Positions 50,405-63,043 of a stretch of 64,000 nucleotides of DNA are shown here, in pieces (position 1 is the first letter of the stretch; every line of letters starts with the position of its first letter). The DNA comes from Schizosaccharomyces osmophilus (taxonomy: Eukaryota). Location: NCBI RefSeq assembly GCF_027921745.1, contig NC_079238.1:930001-994000 (forward strand), written 5' to 3'. The position numbers and the translations under genes are program-made. A model generated the notes under the pieces. It was not told the DNA's origin. It did no database searches and saw nothing but the letters and a program-made list of their open reading frames with translations.

Positions 50405-51391
50405 TAGATAACAAATGGTCCTTAATAGAATTCAAGAGTCGATAGAAAATAAAAATAAAAATAAAAATAAAAAGTATTAAAAAATTCCAATCAACGAACC
50501 TGGCTGGTTTGAAGGTTTTGCAAACTTTTTCCCTCTTATATATAGCAAAATATAAAATAAAATTTAAAACCGAGACTTAAGAATAATAACAAAATAGGGT
50601 GAAAAATCACTCGATATCCTGGACGATGAGATTCGGTTTTCGAGAAATCAGTGATAATCTTTATGATTGTTTGTTAATCAACACAGAAAACAGATAATCC
50701 AAGGAAGGTGTGTTCAACTCAAAATCCTTAAAATCCTTTGAAGTTCTTTCTTTCTTTCCTTAGAACAAGAAAAGGAACTTGCGCAAGTCCTGAAAAGTGC
50801 TTAAAAGATAATTTAATGTTCAATTCGTATACCTTTTCAACATAGCTGCCGAGAGCCATATATATATGTGAATATTCCATCAATATCGCATGTTCAAATC
50901 AACACAACAGTGACGCCAATGCTGACAAGTCTGATGACCGATAAAAATTAGCCGCCTTCTCTTCTCTATTTTTTTTCCAAAAAAATGCGCCGACTAACGT
51001 AAAGCACTTTGCTCATTAAGCGAAGCGTCGGAAGGCGAAAATTTTACGTAAACGTAACACTGATATTTAAGTGAAAGAAAGCGATTTGGAAAAAATACTT
51101 CTTTACCACTCATGAGAGAAATTCGGACTTTGAACTTTTGTTTTAGAAACTTTTTTCAAATTAAACTCCGGTGATTTGGTCTAGCGAAAGAAATTTAGAC
51201 CCAGCCATATGAAGTAAACAAACAATGTAATAATGTCAATGTATGTCAATATATGCCAATGAAATAAAAAAGAAAAAGAAAATAAACATCAAAACAACGA
51301 ACCCTATTATGAAAACAATGCTGTCTTCGTGACACTGGGAATCGATCGGAATGGGAAATGGCTGGAACAAGCTGCAACTGATTCACACCCG

Positions 51392-53293: not shown

Positions 53294-55598
53294 ATCCAAG
53301 AAAATTAAATGAACACTTGGTAAAGAAGTTTATAAATAATAGAAAGTCGTATTCAATAATAGCTTGTCTTTTTATAAACCGAATGAAATCTTCAAAACTT
53401 GCATCAAAACATAAGCATCCTTCTCTATATTTAGTTTTCCTTTCCAACAAGCAGATTCACGGTAAAAGATACTTTGGTTCAATTTCACCTTGTAAATCCA
53501 CCTATTTACGCTTCGTTTATGATCACCGACAAACACGCTCAAGAGAAGGAATACAGACCTATTATTCTCAGAAACACGTTTCCTGGTTAAGTGTAAATTT
53601 TAAACAGCATAAAATGCTAAACTTTTCGCTTTTTTTAGTGTATATTCGATGTAAACAAAGGGTATAGCCAGACCTTGTAGAAAGGATAACGAGATGAAGT
53701 GGATGCTTGTTGATATTGCTAACAACAAATGGTAAGCCAATTTCGTTAAAATGTAAACAAACGGTTGAGATTGTCGTAGCTTTTAACAATGCTGGATATT
53801 CTTCCGTTCTCTTTTCATGAAGAGGCTAGCAATATTGTTTTCTAAAAAGGATGTCAGAAATGATGTTGCATTTGCAAACTTATGTATCAAAGGATGATGA
53901 TGTATGAAAGAAACCACTAGAAATGATTGCTAGTCGTTGAGCGTTCGCGATTACATTGAAATCTTGTTTCCTAATGAGTAAAGCTGTTCATTACTGTGAC
54001 TACCAAGGTTTTCCAAAAAGATCATTACAAACAAATGAAAAGTGCTAATTTTTTTTCATTGCAATCAAACCGTGGCTTTCACATTTTTCATTAGCAAAGT
54101 AGGCCACAAAGCAAGAAAAAAAAATATTTTTCTCTATCAATAATTCAATCAACTCTCTTACCTCTGAAGAGAATTGTAATTTCAATTATTTGTTTGGCAG
54201 TTTTAATTAAGGCATTTCAATAAAGCCAGTCATGAGGGAACAACGAATTTTCGCTCAGGAATCCAGGTTTTTTAGTAAATTGAATTTTTTTATGTGAAAT
54301 GCTAAAAAAAGCTCCTATTTTCTCATAGGAGAAGTCTCATAAGAAGAGAATCTGCTTTGTTTATAAAAATGTAAACAAACGCAAATATACTAAGGTGTTA
54401 CTTATCATTGTGACTCAACACTGCGTAAGCGATGCGAAATATATTGCAGAAACAAACTTCTTCTTTCTTCATTTCTAGCAGTCGGATGGGATTTATCTTG
54501 CTTTTGGAGGAGTTGTAAAATGGATTGACTTGTAGTCGAATCCTATTTCAATTGATATTCGCATTTCATCGTCATTTGGGAGGTTTGCGTATAGAAGAAA
54601 ACTAGAATCGTTCAATTCTTTCGCTCTTGAAACTATACAAGTCCTGTTGGAATGTAAAAAAGAGACAAGTTGGGCTTTACGTACAGCAGTTCCAACGTTT
54701 CCTATGCTGATCTCGAGAAGGGACTTTCTTTATGCACGCCAGAGGCATAAAACAAGCAGCCCAATTCAGGTTCTTTTAAGCAGCAAAGAGAAACGATGTT
54801 TTTCCGTATAATTTCCTTGCAGTATTTATTCAGTTTTCTTTCGAGTGGTCTTGGAAAGTTATTCAGCGGTACTGGAAAAGGGGTAGAATTATTAGTTTAT
54901 AGAGTTGGTTTACTTATTGCGATTGGAATTTAAAATTATTTTTGATGTATGGTATTGCTTCCTTTTTATCCTTTATCCTTCTTAGTTTAATAGCTGTGAG
55001 CTCACCTGAAAACACGTATTAATGGCATACTTCCGAGCTATCAGCAAAACGACAATGCATTGGATCTTGCACCGCCTACTACGAACGAAGGAATAGAGAC
55101 GCAAGCAATAATACTAGTCAAACTTGGTTCCGCTCATTTGTCTTCTGTTCTCTAGTTTGTTTGGACTCTTTCGCTAATGCTGATCGCAATCGATATGGAT
55201 TGCTTTAATAAACCATCATTTATATTCCTTTTTTTATCTATTTCAAATCCAGTCGGAAATAGCTTGAAACTAAGAAACAACTTTGTATTAATATGAATTG
55301 ATGACTGCAATCGAAAGGCATGCGTTTTAATTTCTCATTTTTAAGGCATTGAGTTGGTATGACCGCGGAAATCGAAAACGAAAGACTTACTGCAGCTAAT
55401 CTATTAGTTATTATAAATATTGTTGCTGAAATGTTTACCAAAAAATTGTAATTTCATTACATTCACATTAGGTCCCTTTTTTTTGCTTCCTGTTACTTGT
55501 CGAGGAACGTCTCACAAAAAGGGAAATGAGAAAAGCATTTCCAAGCATGAATTTACGTTCAACATATCAAAAAATAAATAAAGAGAAAAAAAATGAAA

Positions 55599-55728
55599 AG
55601 CCTACAGCACCCTGGATTCCCATGTTGTCTCCAATCGTAGTACTAACGAGGCGAGGCCCTCAGACGTTTTCACTTAACTGCAGTGATCGGACGGGAACTG
55701 GTGTTTTCACCTAGGTGTGGCCGTAGAC
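55599..55728 (-). pseudogene. Degenerate 5S rDNA copy (130 bp; 6-nt and 5-nt insertions plus substitutions)
   Basis: Reverse complement GTCTACGGCCACACCTAGG..TGCTGTAGGCT; versus the copy at 60159 it has an extra TGAAAA and a duplicated GCCTC. Confidence 0.85.
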
Positions 55729-56399
55729 ATTGATTCGCTTTGTAAAAGCAATAAGAGCAATTCGTCTTGTTGTAGTTGATGGTCTTTAGCGTTGTGTGTT
55801 GGCCTGATGTCCTTTAAAATCCAATTCTACTCAGCTCTACCTTTGGTTATTTTTCAGGGCTGAATGAAAAATGCTTTGTTCAATTACAAAATTGATAAAG
55901 TGCAACACTTGGGATGAAAACAAACTGTTTTTCCCTTCTCTATTGATTCACGTTGTGCTAGGCCACCACCACCTAGGAAAGCTGGACTAATAAAGTTGGA
56001 ATATGCGAGAACACTCGTTACTCTTTATCATACAAAAGAGGAATAAATGATTTTTCTAGAGATATCGAGAATGACGAGTGAAGCTGTAGTAAACAAAAGA
56101 ATTCAAGGAATAAAAAAGCAGAAAATGGCATTTTCTTATTCAGATTGAAAAGAAAGAACTAAAACATGACGTGAGAGATGAATAAACTACACGGAACTTC
56201 GAGGAATCCCCAAGTGGTGGCAAGCTGGCCATGCCAGCAGCATCTAGAAAGTACTAGGGCTCTTAAGAAATGTTTGACCCATCGTTGTGTTCAGGTATAA
56301 ATAGGAGTGAAGTAGGGTCGATTCGACAACATTGACAAAAGAAGAACAAGAGTTAATTTTATAGTTTATTTTCAAGTGTGAAAACAAGCGCTATTTACA

Positions 56400-56831
56400 A
56401 TGTCTCTTCAACCTTTCTTCGAGTTGCATCCTTTCCAAGACGTCTTTTCTGACTTTTTGAGTTATTCTCCTCGTGTCCAACGCCAAAATCGTGTTGGCGA
56501 TTTGTCACCGGCAATTGATGTTCACGAAGGAAAAGATACCGTCGAAGTGGATGTAGAACTTCCTGGTGTCAAAAAGCAAGACGTACAAGTTCATTATGAT
56601 GAAGGAAAATTGACGATTTCTGGTGAATCTGTGAACGAGCGCAAGAGCGAAGGCGACAAGGGAAACCAAAGATGGTCGGAACGTCGCTTTGGTTCCTTTT
56701 CTCGAACAATCGCCATTCCAAACAAGGTAGATGCCGATCGTATTGAAGCTCAATTCAACCACGGTATTTTAAGCGTTGTCTTGCCCAAGATTGAGGAATC
56801 TCGCTCCAAGAAGCAAATCGCCATTAATTAA
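56400..56831 (+). CDS. hsp16: Small heat shock protein (Hsp20/alpha-crystallin family)
   Basis: LSPAIDVHE..VELPGVKKQDV..WSERRFGSFSRTI..FNHGILSVVLPK..IAI; TATAAATA at ~56297, CRE TGACGT at 56167. Confidence 0.92.
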   Translation: MSLQPFFELHPFQDVFSDFLSYSPRVQRQNRVGDLSPAIDVHEGKDTVEVDVELPGVKKQDVQVHYDEGKLTISGESVNERKSEGDKGNQRWSERRFGSFSRTIAIPNKVDADRIEAQFNHGILSVVLPKIEESRSKKQIAIN

Positions 56832-57965
56832 GCTAAAGGGCTTCTAGCGGTAAATGAGTTTATGATGATATGAATATAATGAGAATTTTTAATGGCCTTT
56901 TTTAATAAAATAATGTTTAAATGAAAATTTATCAAAATTACAAAGGTACTCAGTTCAATATTGTTTATATTAAGTAGCACGGCGATAAAAACAATGTAAG
57001 TTTACAAGTCTCCAATCTAAGTATTTTAGTCGTTGCATGCTTTTCCAACGTAGTTTAATTCTCGGTCTATGAACATATATCGAATGGAAATTGATAACTG
57101 AAAACTGCAAAGCTGTTTAACTGTTTTACTGACCATGTTATTTTCGAGGACTACGTGTATATATGCTAATGTATTGGAAGATGTCGTTTAATAAAATAAA
57201 AAAGTCAAAACTGCTTTATTGAATCACACCAGTCGAATCTTCGAATTTGAAGACTTTAGCTACGGAATCATAGAATATCTAGCTTTTTTTCTCAGACTAA
57301 CCAACGTATATGATATCTTTAAACATGGATATGAGAATGAAACTTTTGAGTTAAATTTAGAAATCATAGTAGACCTATTCCTTGAAATTATTCAAGGACA
57401 AAATGGTTTCTATTTCAATAGTACGCTATTGTTTTTAAATGGCTTGAATTGTTTCTTGCACCGCCTTATTAACGCCGTTTCTTGTAGAGTAAAACACTAT
57501 ACGCCGTTTATTTTGTCTTTCAGAAAGCTAATATCTTTACTACATCTTTTCAATATTCTGCAAATAAAATGGTAATCAATTAATAATACGAATTAAATTT
57601 CTTATAAAATATTAGGAAAAATCTATTCGAAGCATCGTCCGGCATATTACTGACGAGGACATTATAAAACGAATGTATTAGTTCAAACAGCAGAATCTTC
57701 ACTTCGGAAGACGATAAATGGGAACGTTTTTAGCAATATAAAGAATAACTCAATTTAGATATAAGAAAGAAAAAACTCGCAGGTTCAAATTATCCAAGAG
57801 TAGTTGATCGATCTTATACGTTCATTGTTCATGTAGGCGATAAAATAAAAAAGCTTTTCATGCCAGAAAAAGAAAGGAAAAATTAAGAAACCATAAAGTA
57901 AACATTATGCTAATAAACAGTCATTTCAAAAGATGACTCAATATGCTTGAAAAGCGCCTTCAAAG

Positions 57966-58832
57966 TCAACGAAACCCAGATAAAAGAAACTCGTTATCTC
58001 CCAAGGACTCTAATCCGACGGCATTACGAAGACGCTCCTTTAACTTTATCGTCTCATTTGGCCCATACTGAATTCCATAGCCGTCAAGATAACGAGTACA
58101 TTGATCTTTTGTCAAGTTCTCGATATCCTCAATTGAATGAATCTGGGGCAGATCAAAGTCTGGTTCTTGGCCATTTACAAATGGAACGACATCAATAGAC
58201 TTCCCCAAGGATCTCAACTGTATGTTGTGCAATCTATAGTATCGATACTCCTGCTTGCTCAGTTTCTGATCGATACTACGTAGGCTTTCTTCTATTACGT
58301 CCGACCGTTGATTTTGCCGGACTTCCAGGGCTTCCAGTCGTTGTATTTGACGGGTTTCCAGGGCTTCCAGTCGTTGAATTTGACGGGTTTCCAGGGCTTC
58401 CAGTCGTTGAATTTGACGGGTTTCCAGGGATACCATCTCCCTTTTAAGAGCAAGAAATCCGACATTAGGATCATTAAAAAAGTTAATAAACCATTGTGGA
58501 GGTTGACTATTATTAGACTCCTCTAAACTTTTGTAATGATTCAGACGTCTCTCAACTAGGTTTATCTGTTCAAGCGCGCGTAAATTACTATAAAGATAAT
58601 CCTTTTCAAAATTCATTTCCCTGGTTCGTAAAGTAATTCGTTCGAAACCTTGTTCTAACTCATGCCTTTGAAATAGATAGCTTTTTTCATTGACTGCACC
58701 TCTTAAGTCAATTAAATAGCGACTTAACTCTGTAATGTTTTCCTGTCTTGGAGGAGGAATACCTAATTCATTCGTATATAAATTCTCGTTGTTGGTTGAC
58801 AAATCTTCTTGTAAGTGTGAATCCATATTCAT
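57966..58832 (-). CDS. Mug2/Mug135/Meu2 (Tdk1-like, DUF1773) family protein, 288 aa
   Basis: PPQWF motif, repeat-rich coiled-coil stalk, C-terminal VPFVNGQEP..LPQIHSIEDIENLTKDQCTRYLDGYGI..LKERLRNAVG matching the recalled DUF1773 pattern. Confidence 0.75.
   Translation of the reverse strand: MNMDSHLQEDLSTNNENLYTNELGIPPPRQENITELSRYLIDLRGAVNEKSYLFQRHELEQGFERITLRTREMNFEKDYLYSNLRALEQINLVERRLNHYKSLEESNNSQPPQWFINFFNDPNVGFLALKREMVSLETRQIQRLEALETRQIQRLEALETRQIQRLEALEVRQNQRSDVIEESLRSIDQKLSKQEYRYYRLHNIQLRSLGKSIDVVPFVNGQEPDFDLPQIHSIEDIENLTKDQCTRYLDGYGIQYGPNETIKLKERLRNAVGLESLGDNEFLLSGFR
58323..58429 (-). repeat. 33-bp tandem repeat x3 plus partial (ETRQIQRLEAL)
   Basis: Plus-strand unit ttccagggcttccagtcgttg(a/t)atttgacgggt at 58323, 58356, 58389. 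Confidence 0.95.
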
Positions 58833-60158
58833 TTTCTTTCATAAAATCAAGTAAAAGATCAATTCAATAATTAACTTTATATTGTTATTGCAATGGTTGT
58901 GGTTGTGGTTGTGGTTGTGGTGATGGAAGCAGTTTAAAGATACTAATTAACGAAGCGATAGCTATATACTCGAGGTAGTTCGATCAGTACAATTATGTAC
59001 GATTGTATAATATAGCCAAAAAAGTTTACTCAAGTTTAACAATGGCTTGCTTTTTCACAAAATCTAGAAAAATTCACAGAAATATTACTGTTTAGTTGAC
59101 TTTAATGAAAGATATCTCAATTCACCGAAAACAAAGTATACCTAGTAATCACTCAACAAAAACATTCAACATAAGAACTCGTGTCATCATCAGTCAAATT
59201 TGTTTACAGTCTTTTAATTTATAAGTTTTTAGAAAGCTAATGGTATAAACTTTAGGTTGAAAAGGTTTCAGCGGTCCATTTGTTCTGTCTTTTCATAATG
59301 TAAACAGAAAAATTTTGGGGAATAACAAAAAATCCATGTTGCTTCCTAAGCAGAACCAGATAAAAGTAATATTGAATTTGAAGTAGAACTTGAACAATGT
59401 AAAACCCAAGAAAAGGCAAAGTTTGTTGTTGCACAATTATAGACAAGGAAATTGCTGTTTCATATGAGGATGCCTATACTGCTTTGGTGCCATTCTATGC
59501 TTCACTTGTGTTCGTCAAAAACTAATCGATATCATGCTTTCTCTTTCTTTTTCTTAAAATGGAAAGTTAATTACAAAACTGAGAACCTTGCAAGATGGTT
59601 GGTGTAAACGAAACGTAATTGTTGCTGAGAATCGATGTCAATAAACAAATGCTCTCTTGTGTAAAAGCTTGGCGAAAACTTTTTTTATTCAAATAAAACA
59701 AGAATGAGATTCAAGTAGAGCCAATAAAAAAGAGGAAATTATCTTTGAAGTCACTACTTTTATATCAATCTACCGGCGGCGGTTTTGCATGGAAATATTA
59801 AATTTGTAACCAAAACTTTTATTATTGCAACATTCGCGCGTACTCTGTTACAACAGAAATCTCACAGAATATGGGAATGTTTACCTAGCGAAAACAAACA
59901 ACGAGGACAAATCTAAAATTGTCTAATTAGTCGAGCATTTTTAATACGATGTGAGAATAGTAAGAAAGTGAGCTGTATTTTTTTTTTTTTTTTTTTTTTT
60001 TTTCAATGTTTGTATGCATTTATAGCATTTTGAACCCATGGAAGAAAAGTAAAAGTCGGATTCAAGTGACTCTACTATAGTATCGATTTAAAGAAGGGTC
60101 TTTGCTTGTATAGACCAACAAAACCGGATTGTTTAAAAAAGGAAACCAAAAAGTGAAA

Positions 60159-60277
60159 AGCCTACAGCATCCCGGATTCCCATGTTGTCTCCAACCATAG
60201 TACTAACGAGACCCTCAGACGCTTAACTGCAGTGATCGGACGGGAACTGGTGTTTTCGCCTAGGTGTGGCCGTAGAC
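60159..60277 (-). rRNA. 5S rRNA gene (intact, 119 nt)
   Basis: GTCTACGGCCACACCTAGGCGAAAACACCAGTTCCCGTCCGATC..TTAGTACTATGGTTGGAGACAACATGGGAATCC..TGCTGTAGGCT followed by T-runs (Pol III terminator). Confidence 0.96.
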
Positions 60278-60937
60278 GTTTGTTGTGGTCTGTAAAAAAA
60301 TTTAATCCAATATTGATCCAGTCTTTTTGGCTTGATGAACTACAAGATCCAATTCGGCTCAGTTTTATCTGGTAAATTATCACGGTTGAACGGAGAATGC
60401 TTTCATATTGTAAGAATAAGATTTGAAAACACACAGTTTTCTCTTTTCTATTGATTCACATTGTGGTCGCAGGAGCATCAAATTGAGTGTATGAGTTTAT
60501 GGGTTGAAAATGTTACTTAATATAAATTGGGTTCTACTTGAAATTTTTCATGGTCCGTCGACTTGACTCCCAAAGTAAACGGTAATTCAATGTTTTAAAC
60601 TATATCAATCGATTCTTCCAATCTGAAGATTTATACTTTCTATGCTGTGAACGAATTTTACCTCTGGCGGTAATCACTTTCGTTCTTACAATTAATGAAA
60701 GACACGACACAGTGTTGAGTAAAAAACTAGTTAATTACGATGGTATTTTCCTCAGAATAATTAAAAATCATTAAAAAGGGTGTCTACTCATGAAGAAAAT
60801 GAACGATGCCGTGAAACGAATAAGAAGATTCATGAGAGAGAAATGAGAAAAGCAATCAAAGTCTGCTGGACTGCAATTGACATCGATGTTTCCAAAGAAG
60901 GAGCGAATGTAAAGAACGAAAGCGGCTTCGGTAGAAC

Positions 60938-62122
60938 TCAAACTTCAGCCCTTTGCTCAGCAAGAGGTTGAAGTTCGATTTCTTCGTTACGAGGTGCTTC
61001 ATCTCCTCGATTTGTTCCTTTTGAATTGGTTAATAACGCCTTGTGATAGGAAGCATTTACCAAGTGTACATACCGAACATATGAACCACAGCATTTCCCA
61101 AGCCGTGTCCCAAGCCATTTATTCCGTTTCCTAAGCCATTTATGCCGTTTCCTAAGCCATTTATGCCGTTTCCTAAGCCACTCATGCCGTTTCCCATATC
61201 GACGACTACTAATCTAAGTCGTTCACGCGCATTTGCATTCACTATAACTGTTAGAACATTTCGCGGGTGTATGACATACTCGTCAAATAAAGAAACAAGA
61301 CAAAGTTAACAAAACAAACAGCATAGAAAAAATTGTTGTTTATCTTTTCAAATCCTGTGAACTTCTTTGCAGCATAATACGCGGTGAAACCGAGGACATC
61401 GAGAAAACACACACATAATACTGAGATACACATAGCTGACAATACGTTTTTGGTTAATCTTCCAGTTTGCCTGTACCATTCCGGATATGTTACAAGAATC
61501 GCTAAAAATAAGTCAGTTGTTCGAAGACAAGAAATTGTTGACTTACTGAATAGGAAAATAAAAATGGATCCAATAGAACCGCCAGCAAGCCCGTAAAAAA
61601 CATTCGTATACGGAGAAACCTTGTAACCAAAAACTATGGCTAGAAAAACAGTATTATATAAAATAGCTATAATAGTCATTATGCCTACGAAAAAGTTTTT
61701 CCACCACTCTTTATTCGTTAAAGGGTCCGACCTGATGTTATTAACAGTATCTTGGGCGGAATTTTGAGCGGATCCATCAGCCATTTCTAGATCAACATTT
61801 TTTTTTGAGACTAATGGATGTATTAGTAACTGTTTTTTCGTGGTTTACGAAAGGATAGAGGTGTTTGTCGCGCTTGCTGACAGTTATCGACCAGGTGATT
61901 GAATTCAAACCCAACAATCAAATAAACAAGCATGATTCTTCCATCATGAGCCGTTCAAACAAGAACACAAAGAATAAACCTTTCCGTTCTATTTCAACTA
62001 ATCTTACCTGAATACGGAGGAGGCGTACCATCTGAAGGAGACGACCGACTATCTGCCTTTTCATCATTGAGCGTTTTGGAAGAGTCATCAGAATCTGAAA
62101 TAGGAGAGTACTTGTTTTTCAT
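60938..62122 (-). CDS. wtf: wtf-family meiotic driver, 5 exons: 62122-62008, 61810-61547, 61501-61280, 61241-61074, 61017-60938 (282-aa long isoform; 235-aa short isoform from ATG 61784)
   Basis: Exon 1 MKNKYSPI..TPPPYS (PY motif), 197-nt intron 1, in-frame ATG early in exon 2, several TM segments, 21-bp Gly/Asn repeats in exon 4, acidic tail ending AEV; four GT-AG introns keep frame (849 nt); 5S rDNA nearby. Confidence 0.88.
61112..61195 (-). repeat. 21-bp tandem repeat x4 in wtf exon 4 (GNGINGL)
   Basis: Plus-strand unit aagccatttatgccgtttcct. Confidence 0.92.
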
Positions 62123-63043
62123 ATTTACAATGGCAAGTAGAGCTCAAAATAGCGCCGATATTTACACTCCAAATGAAATCAACTAGAATCGCCAAGAAAA
62201 GTCCGTAGGAACTGGTTCCGCTCTTCACAGATCTGTCAGAAAAAGGAATTGGACCTTGCTTAAAAAGCAAACTAATCTTACAACACGAGTGTTCCCTTAA
62301 AACCAAAGATGCGAGTTTGAAAAAATCTTGGTAATGGCTTTTCGCATGTCTCAATTCATAAAAGCAGCGACATTATGTCACTGACTGGTCACAGTCCTCG
62401 TTACGATTATTCAACGTTGGTTTTTCATTGCGATTTTTCGTAATAGTATAATCCAAAAGAGTCGTCGTTTATTACAAAAAGTAAACAAAGGAACATTTGG
62501 CAAAACAACCATGCTGTTTGCTTAAATTATAAAAACAGGATTAGAAATGCATATCTTTGTATTGGAAGTTTCCGTGATTTTGGCTTAATGAATTCCAGGG
62601 AAAAGGATTGAACACTCTAGATTTTCGTAGCCTTACTTTCAGCATTCGTAAATCCATCGGAAGCCTGGAAAAGCAACGTTCAAACTATCACGAACGATGT
62701 TTGTAGTGACAAGTACATCTTTCTTTTATTTAATTTATTTTGATTACACGATAGAAACAAACAAAAGCGATTTCGGACAGTTCATTCATTGTAAATATAT
62801 ATAGAATAGCGTACGCTTACTAGCTATCGGTATGTGTGTCAGAGAGGGTGGATGACAGCTTCACCTCTGCAAAACTCTAGCCATTGCCATTGTGGACTCG
62901 ATTCATGTAGTTTGGAGTTGTTACAAAGTAGATTTATATTAAGCTTATTAGTCGGATCAGATGTGTGCTACTGTTCTGAAAGTTCTGACATGAATTTGGA
63001 TGTTTACTGCCTATTTGAGTAGGTTTTGAAGGAATTTCAGAAA

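Follow-up and report, generated by a model that had tools for sequence, protein, structure and literature searches.

Tdk1 (mug135) of Schizosaccharomyces pombe is a single protein that forms toxic assemblies in spores, takes an antidote form when made at germination and kills via Bdf1/Bdf2, and the helix preceding its PF08593 domain is where it binds the host factor. The Tdk203 branch of the family does without Bdf1. According to the main text of the tdk family preprint (PMC12930445), tdk203 (SPOG_05700) of S. cryophilus is an active driver that brings non-carrier viability down to 5.4% under P.adh1, and a self-killing variant of Tdk203 is toxic even in S. cerevisiae, which argues that its target is widely conserved. 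The same text reports that tdk203 and tdk210 have no Mei4 sites and drive with no rise in meiotic expression, that there is no cross-protection among tdk1, tdk210 and tdk203, and that resistance follows physical interaction, with Tdk11 binding and resisting Tdk210 at only 51.4% identity. Furthermore, natural and reconstructed tdk alleles have lost killing and kept resistance, as in the Tdk1 haplotype HT3 and the reconstructed tdk315, pseudogenes account for 49 of the 93 tdk loci, and none of the S. osmophilus tdk genes tested shows drive (nine intact genes; PMC12930445). Statements from the literature draw on parts of PMC12930445, PMC11551426, PMC11551393, PMC9562144 and 10.64898/2026.01.24.701316, and Tong et al. 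2019 is cited through the last of these.

The window gene and its published counterpart

We analysed a window of 64,000 nucleotides of S. osmophilus DNA that holds one such gene (Table 1). The frame of 867 nt runs from ATG to TGA with one stop, and an in-frame stop lies immediately 5′ of the ATG. A Pfam search, one of the checks proposed by an earlier sequence-only reading of this DNA, found the PF08593 domain with an E value of 2.6e-20 and 72.9 bits against a cut-off of 23.8, covering profile positions 2-81 of 82. Among 177,635 distinct PDB sequences, two matched below E 0.001, both of them Tdk1 constructs (E 4e-24). The comparison of a predicted structure with Tdk1, a further proposed check, gave the Tdk1 entries 9ja5 and 9ja6 as the sole fold matches in the PDB below E 0.001 (E 6.5e-6).

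The predicted model of the 288-aa protein, made from an alignment of 6 sequences (mean pLDDT 64, pTM 0.29), has a helix over residues 33-105, an interruption at the PP motif (residues 111-112, with pLDDT below 50 at 107-110), a second helix over residues 122-208 and a small helical C-terminal domain. The second helix is the stalk ahead of the C-terminal domain and carries the 33-bp repeat (x3.8). The Z segment is present by sequence, aligning with Tdk1 from residue 16, and the model is of low confidence there (pLDDT 59-68). The single-exon frame with PPQWF, repeats and C-terminal domain described by the sequence-only reading is thus borne out by the frame itself, Pfam, repeat analysis and the predicted model, and its assignment to a Tdk1/Mug135-like family agrees with the PF08593 match, the Tdk1 matches in the PDB and the tree described below.

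Table 1. Features of the window around the tdk-family gene, in window coordinates.
Feature	Position	Strand	Remark
Degenerate 5S rRNA gene, 74.3 bits	55599..55728	-	left boundary of hsp16-tdk segment
hsp16-like small heat-shock gene	56400..56831	+	convergent with tdk gene
Transcript extent, runs X3 and X4	57556..58879	-	poly(A) loose end at 57556 in X3
tdk-family CDS, 288 aa, single exon	57966..58832	-	match to published tdk304 / SOMG_00451
PF08593 (Mug135_C / DUF1773 / IPR013902) domain, residues 202-274	58011..58229	-	
33-bp tandem repeat, 3.8 copies, 93% matches	58306..58429	-	11-residue unit in helical stalk
PPQWF linker, residues 111-115	58488..58502	-	PP motif of tdk family
Z-shaped N-terminal segment, residues 22-52	58677..58769	-	28/31 identical with RefSeq Tdk203 protein
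Forkhead-type motif GTAAACAAA	59199..59207	-	367 bases 5′ of ATG; 9/11 of FLEX 11-mer
GTAAACA core	59300..59306	+	468 bases 5′ of ATG
GTAAACA core	59878..59884	-	1046 bases 5′ of ATG
5S rRNA gene, 103.8 bits	60159..60277	-	right boundary; direct repeat of left copy
wtf-like multi-exon gene, ends approximate	60938..62123	-	PPPY motif in first exon
wag-like two-exon gene	63044..63929	+	divergent from wtf gene; GT-AG intron 63552-63606

The family preprint lists tdk304 (SOMG_00451) as 867 nt on the minus strand of chr1 at 987966-988832, with 94.1% identity to tdk605 (PMC12930445). These coordinates equal those of the window gene plus exactly 930000; length, strand and identity to Tdk605 agree as well, and no difference from the published description was seen. 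From these matching properties, rather than from a sequence alignment, there is little doubt that the window gene is tdk304 and is already published.

The drive tests of tdk304 in the preprint used an S. pombe host without tdk1 and tdk11. In tetrads, the tdk1 promoter construct gave 139 viable progeny out of 156, with 70 carriers against 69 non-carriers, and the construct with the strong constitutive P.adh1 gave 103 out of 108, with 51 carriers against 52 non-carriers (PMC12930445). The pooled carrier share that we computed from these counts is 0.50 (95% interval 0.44-0.56). Constructs of tdk304 in the strain table are with P.tdk1 and P.adh1 only, native promoters being mentioned in the main text, and all four occurrences of tdk304 in the tetrad table, from two strains, are crosses to non-carriers. 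The authors regard the tdk304 defect as intrinsic and also state that tests in a heterologous host can miss drive (PMC12930445). A literature search for tdk304 returned this preprint only, the supplements or a later journal version of which may hold further tests.

The sequence-only reading had proposed a possible second toxin-antidote driver and had named Mendelian transmission with viable non-carriers as one of the outcomes that would speak against it. That outcome is in print, although from the foreign host S. pombe: tdk304 was transmitted 1:1, with normally viable non-carriers, under two promoters. Further drivers of the family, tdk210 and tdk203, have been published already (PMC12930445). 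As a driver candidate the gene thus has little weight, since it is catalogued and negative for drive in a foreign host.

Relatives, transcription and upstream motifs

Among 7,996 candidates scored, the homolog search returned five matches, all from Schizosaccharomyces, the top one being S. octosporus EPX71658.1 (tdk605, SOCG_01873) with 271 of 288 residues identical (94.1%). Of the proteins found by a wide profile search, 231 reached E <=0.001 and 28 reached <=1e-10; many of the weak ones match the repeat stalk only, and those resting on it alone were left unused. In a tree of 18 proteins (six close relatives and the next 12 among the 150 profile matches listed), the window protein pairs with Tdk605 (98/97) and then with the active driver Tdk203 (100/99). 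The other proposal of the sequence-only reading, a driver-derived paralog, is supported by family membership and by this tree.

The species branch in the same order, (Tdk203,(Tdk304,Tdk605)), and horizontal transfer is therefore not required to explain the tree. The preprint authors read the closeness of tdk304 and tdk605 at non-syntenic sites as possible horizontal transfer, and we noted that they date the divergence of S. osmophilus from S. octosporus to ~30 Mya in that sentence and to ~16 Mya in the next paragraph (PMC12930445); the younger date would weaken the argument. The 94.1% identity is above the 88.9% mean of orthologs between the two species and inside the range of six nearby ortholog genes (63% to 97.5%), and for the latter reason selection is not proven.

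In the preprint, tdk605 is equal in length to the window gene and likewise without drive (54:54 and 83:80; PMC12930445). The two proteins differ at 17 residues, nine in the repeat stretch and eight outside it, and all 73 residues of the PF08593 region are identical. Within the repeat stretch 58306-58429, three successive units share one change relative to Tdk605 (positions 141, 152 and 163), which may be a sign of repeat homogenisation after the split of tdk304 and tdk605.

Comparison with Tdk203 is affected by the RefSeq protein (279 aa), which is mis-assembled, with a true length of 342 aa, and for which counts within the repeats are unreliable. With this RefSeq protein the window protein shares 235 of 293 columns (~80%), and the preprint gives 68.5% identity for Tdk203 proper, at 342 aa against 288 aa here (PMC12930445). 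The likeness to the RefSeq protein is high in the Z segment (Table 1), PF08593 (68/73) and the tail (13/14), and lower in the stalk just C-terminal of the repeats (16/25). The PP motif is nearly identical, the glutamate whose change turns Tdk203 self-killing is kept (E266), and Tdk203 lacks seven residues found at 80-86 of the window protein. A short stalk as the cause of inactivity was considered and is weakened, the repeat region of Tdk1 being dispensable for drive according to the published account. Tdk1 itself is reported at 23.5% identity and has the layout of N-domain, stalk and DUF1773 in common with the window protein.

Next, we examined transcription. Cover by runs X1 and X2 is even across the region, as expected of DNA, and the contigs of runs X3 and X4, which come from one sample, cover 57556 or 57724 to 58879, with none over 58940-59950, where X1 and X2 continue. 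The X3 contig ends in a T run before 57556, the poly(A) tail of a minus-strand RNA, and a GT-AG spliced joint at 63552-63606 is present in X4 and missing from X1. Among the runs listed none is registered as RNA; because of the cover pattern, the poly(A) end and the spliced joint, we took X3 and X4 as RNA libraries. The tdk gene is transcribed and polyadenylated, with a 3′ UTR of ~410 bases, in contigs of one sample that carry neither stage nor level. At the 5′ end the X3 and X4 cover runs into a masked repeat (58880-58930), and a TGGTTG microsatellite of 4.7 copies (58894-58921) lies 60-90 bases 5′ of the ATG, where the RNA-like contigs stop. X3 also has a poly(A) loose end at 56937 for the hsp16-like gene. 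Run X5, from a second sample, covers repeated parts only and no single-copy gene, and is uninformative on gene presence or absence.

The three upstream forkhead or FLEX-like motifs are where the sequence-only reading had placed them. In the 1326-base upstream gap GTAAACA occurs three times against 0.88 expected from the other non-coding DNA of the window (P 0.059), and the 9-mer GTAAACAAA once against 0.44 (P 0.36), the coding mask behind this background (ORFs of at least 100 aa) being rough. Within 500 bases 5′ of the genes checked, GTAAACA is found for 8 of 23 and the 9-mer for 6 of 23, and across the whole window GTAAAYA is found 43 times (23 in shuffles) and GTAAACAAA 11 times (1.5 in shuffles). 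The upstream motifs are thus not clearly above local background. All three sites fall short of the full 11-base FLEX GTAAACAAACA, and the one closest to the ATG is 367 bases away, whereas the functional FLEX site of S. pombe tdk1 is reported 116 bases upstream. Mei4 control through these predicted sites is possible but not supported by the counts; meiotic expression from FLEX-like sites is not needed for drive, because tdk203 and tdk210 drive without Mei4 sites. Elsewhere in the window, the sole full GTAAACAAACA is at 51214-51224 (+), just past the 3′ end of cdc23, and a GTAAACAAA site at 62481 lies between the wtf-like and wag-like genes.

Chromosomal setting of the gene

The gene order is cdc23/MCM10, degenerate 5S, hsp16, tdk gene, intact 5S, wtf-like gene and wag-like gene. 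The left 5S copy has insertions of ~5 and ~6 bases relative to the right copy, and the flanks of both 5S genes share a weaker likeness for ~230 bases upstream. The hsp16-like gene of the window falls in a 90% cluster whose 13 members come from S. osmophilus and S. octosporus. An hsp16-like accession is three numbers away from that of tdk605, and hsp16 expansions have been speculated, in the available text of the orthogroup paper, to be tied to selfish elements. The wtf-like gene contains a 21-bp coding repeat at 61102-61194, and the one exon tested gave no Pfam match over the cut-off. We infer that it is the published S. osmophilus wtf1, and the wag name is likewise given to its neighbour from position and orientation.

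In the available text of PMC9562144, S. osmophilus wtf1 sits between g85 and g88, and g85 has 94.056% identity to SOCG_01873, which makes g85 the window tdk gene. In the parts of the ortholog tables at hand, g82 on the left, which we equate with cdc23 by its order and length, corresponds to SOCG_01595/SPOG_04479, while g88-g90 on the right correspond to SOCG_01490-01488 and SPOG_04587-04589. Across 53294-64000 the ortholog numbers therein jump by ~105 genes between the two sides, in S. octosporus and in S. cryophilus. The wtf71 gene of S. octosporus is flanked by SOCG_01490 and 01492, whose S. cryophilus orthologs are three numbers apart (PMC9562144). These gene numbers, rather than a DNA alignment, suggest that ~100 genes were inverted in the lineage of S. 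osmophilus, with a wtf/5S site at either end and the present block as a breakpoint.

Like the window gene, which adjoins a wtf-like gene, tdk605 flanks a 5S-associated wtf gene (wtf77). SOCG_01873 lies beside the 5S-associated wtf77-wtf78 locus of S. octosporus with other neighbours (PMC9562144), and the adjacent wtf genes of the two species are reported as only ~44% identical. The ortholog tables suggest that tdk605 flanks its wtf gene at a different site than the window gene. In the second S. osmophilus lineage, no listed tdk locus is called syntenic with tdk304 in the main text of the preprint (PMC12930445).

The depth of X1 contigs rises on both sides of the tdk gene, which is itself at single-copy level. 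At 54200-55500, left of the degenerate 5S, the depth exceeds single copy, which shows that the genome has further copies of this stretch; tblastn found no wtf, wag, tdk or hsp16 remnant in it. A frame of 126 codons from stop to stop, with no early ATG, lies at 57195-57572 (+) in the interval from hsp16 to the tdk gene; X3 and X4 contigs leave most of it uncovered, and it is possibly a gene remnant. Excision of the 5S-to-5S segment was also considered; the X1 joints that skip the segment, with sides 25-39 letters long that fall at repeats, were not accepted as such.

Explanations and comparison with known systems

Collectively, these results lead us to lean, with moderate confidence, towards the reading that tdk304, an intact and transcribed gene that does not kill in S. 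pombe, is an antidote-only descendant of a Tdk203-type driver. We hypothesize that its killing defect is located in the protein, which would keep self-assembly through the stalk and C-terminal domain and, when synthesised during germination, would break up the toxic assemblies that a near-identical Tdk forms, by co-assembling with it. The antidote-only state is likely because the gene is close to Tdk203, intact, expressed and non-killing, and because other tdk alleles have lost killing only. An intact, polyadenylated frame in a family so rich in pseudogenes favours it, as do the identity to Tdk605 above the ortholog mean and the closeness of the Z segment, PF08593 and tail to Tdk203, the divergent stalk being the helix with which Tdk1 binds its host factor. 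Against it, no S. osmophilus tdk tested drives, so its own genome offers no known toxin to counter; the lack of cross-protection among tdk1, tdk210 and tdk203 and a repeat number far from that of Tdk203 mean that co-assembly could break. The killing-deficient part of the reading is weakened by the foreign assay host.

The gene may instead be a passenger, neither killing nor useful as an antidote, copied with the 5S/wtf/hsp16 repeat block and still undecayed. The negative drive tests of tdk304, the absence of an active tdk among those reported for S. osmophilus, the frequent decay of the family and the second lineage without a listed syntenic locus all fit this, as does a repeat-rich block with raised X1 depth on both sides of a single-copy gene. 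However, tdk304 and tdk605 are both intact, with an unchanged PF08593 and only eight differences outside the repeat stretch, and the tdk gene is transcribed; we consider the passenger reading rather unlikely.

Active single-protein drive confined to the native host, with a host factor or promoter context missing in S. pombe, is a smaller possibility still. It is in keeping with an intact, transcribed gene near the active Tdk203, with the authors' caution about heterologous tests, with a strain table of P.tdk1 and P.adh1 constructs and with the closeness to non-syntenic tdk605, whose possible horizontal transfer would fit a spreading element. Yet Tdk203, ~80% identical by its RefSeq protein, drives strongly in the same assay according to the preprint, the toxicity of its variant in S. 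cerevisiae points to a widely conserved target, neither tdk304 nor tdk605 drove when strongly and constitutively expressed, and the forkhead sites are not above background.

Domestication for a non-drive host function common to S. osmophilus and S. octosporus (for example chromatin-associated or spore) is very doubtful: a tree order that would allow vertical descent with constraint and the identity to Tdk605 over the ortholog mean speak for it, but the two genes are non-syntenic, the literature passages hold no phenotype and the gene is located among selfish-element repeats.

Returning to the antidote-only reading, its value would be that of a natural near-twin of an active driver, bearing on the published model in which killing is lost before resistance. 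Under it the gene would likely have reached its chromosome-internal site through recombination between 5S/wtf repeats. The 5S/wtf surroundings give tdk genes a concrete way to relocate, on which the main text of the family preprint is silent. There is a slim chance that tdk304 is an active driver restricted to its host and has moved between fission-yeast species and chromosome sites in a 5S-bounded block with wtf/wag, the block marking the inversion breakpoint; if true, two unrelated killer families would share one repeat-based route of spread.

The words rDNA and hsp16 do not occur in the main text of the preprint (PMC12930445), and in the literature since 2024 on tdk with 5S rDNA, Schizosaccharomyces and meiotic drive we found the orthogroup paper only, with one mention each. 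Our literature searches found no account of the present arrangement, in which two 5S rDNA copies enclose a tdk gene and hsp16 next to a wtf/wag unit; it is a minor new point of this study. The presence of hsp16 in 5S-containing repeats is known from S. cryophilus centromeres, as far as the available text describes them, and here hsp16 lies within the 5S-to-5S segment. Drivers of the wtf family near dispersed 5S rDNA are described with direct 5S repeats, and wtf spread by non-allelic recombination has been proposed in the available text (PMC9562144; 10.64898/2026.01.24.701316). While it has no sequence relation to wtf, the window tdk gene, like the 5S-associated wtf drivers, stands between direct 5S rDNA repeats.
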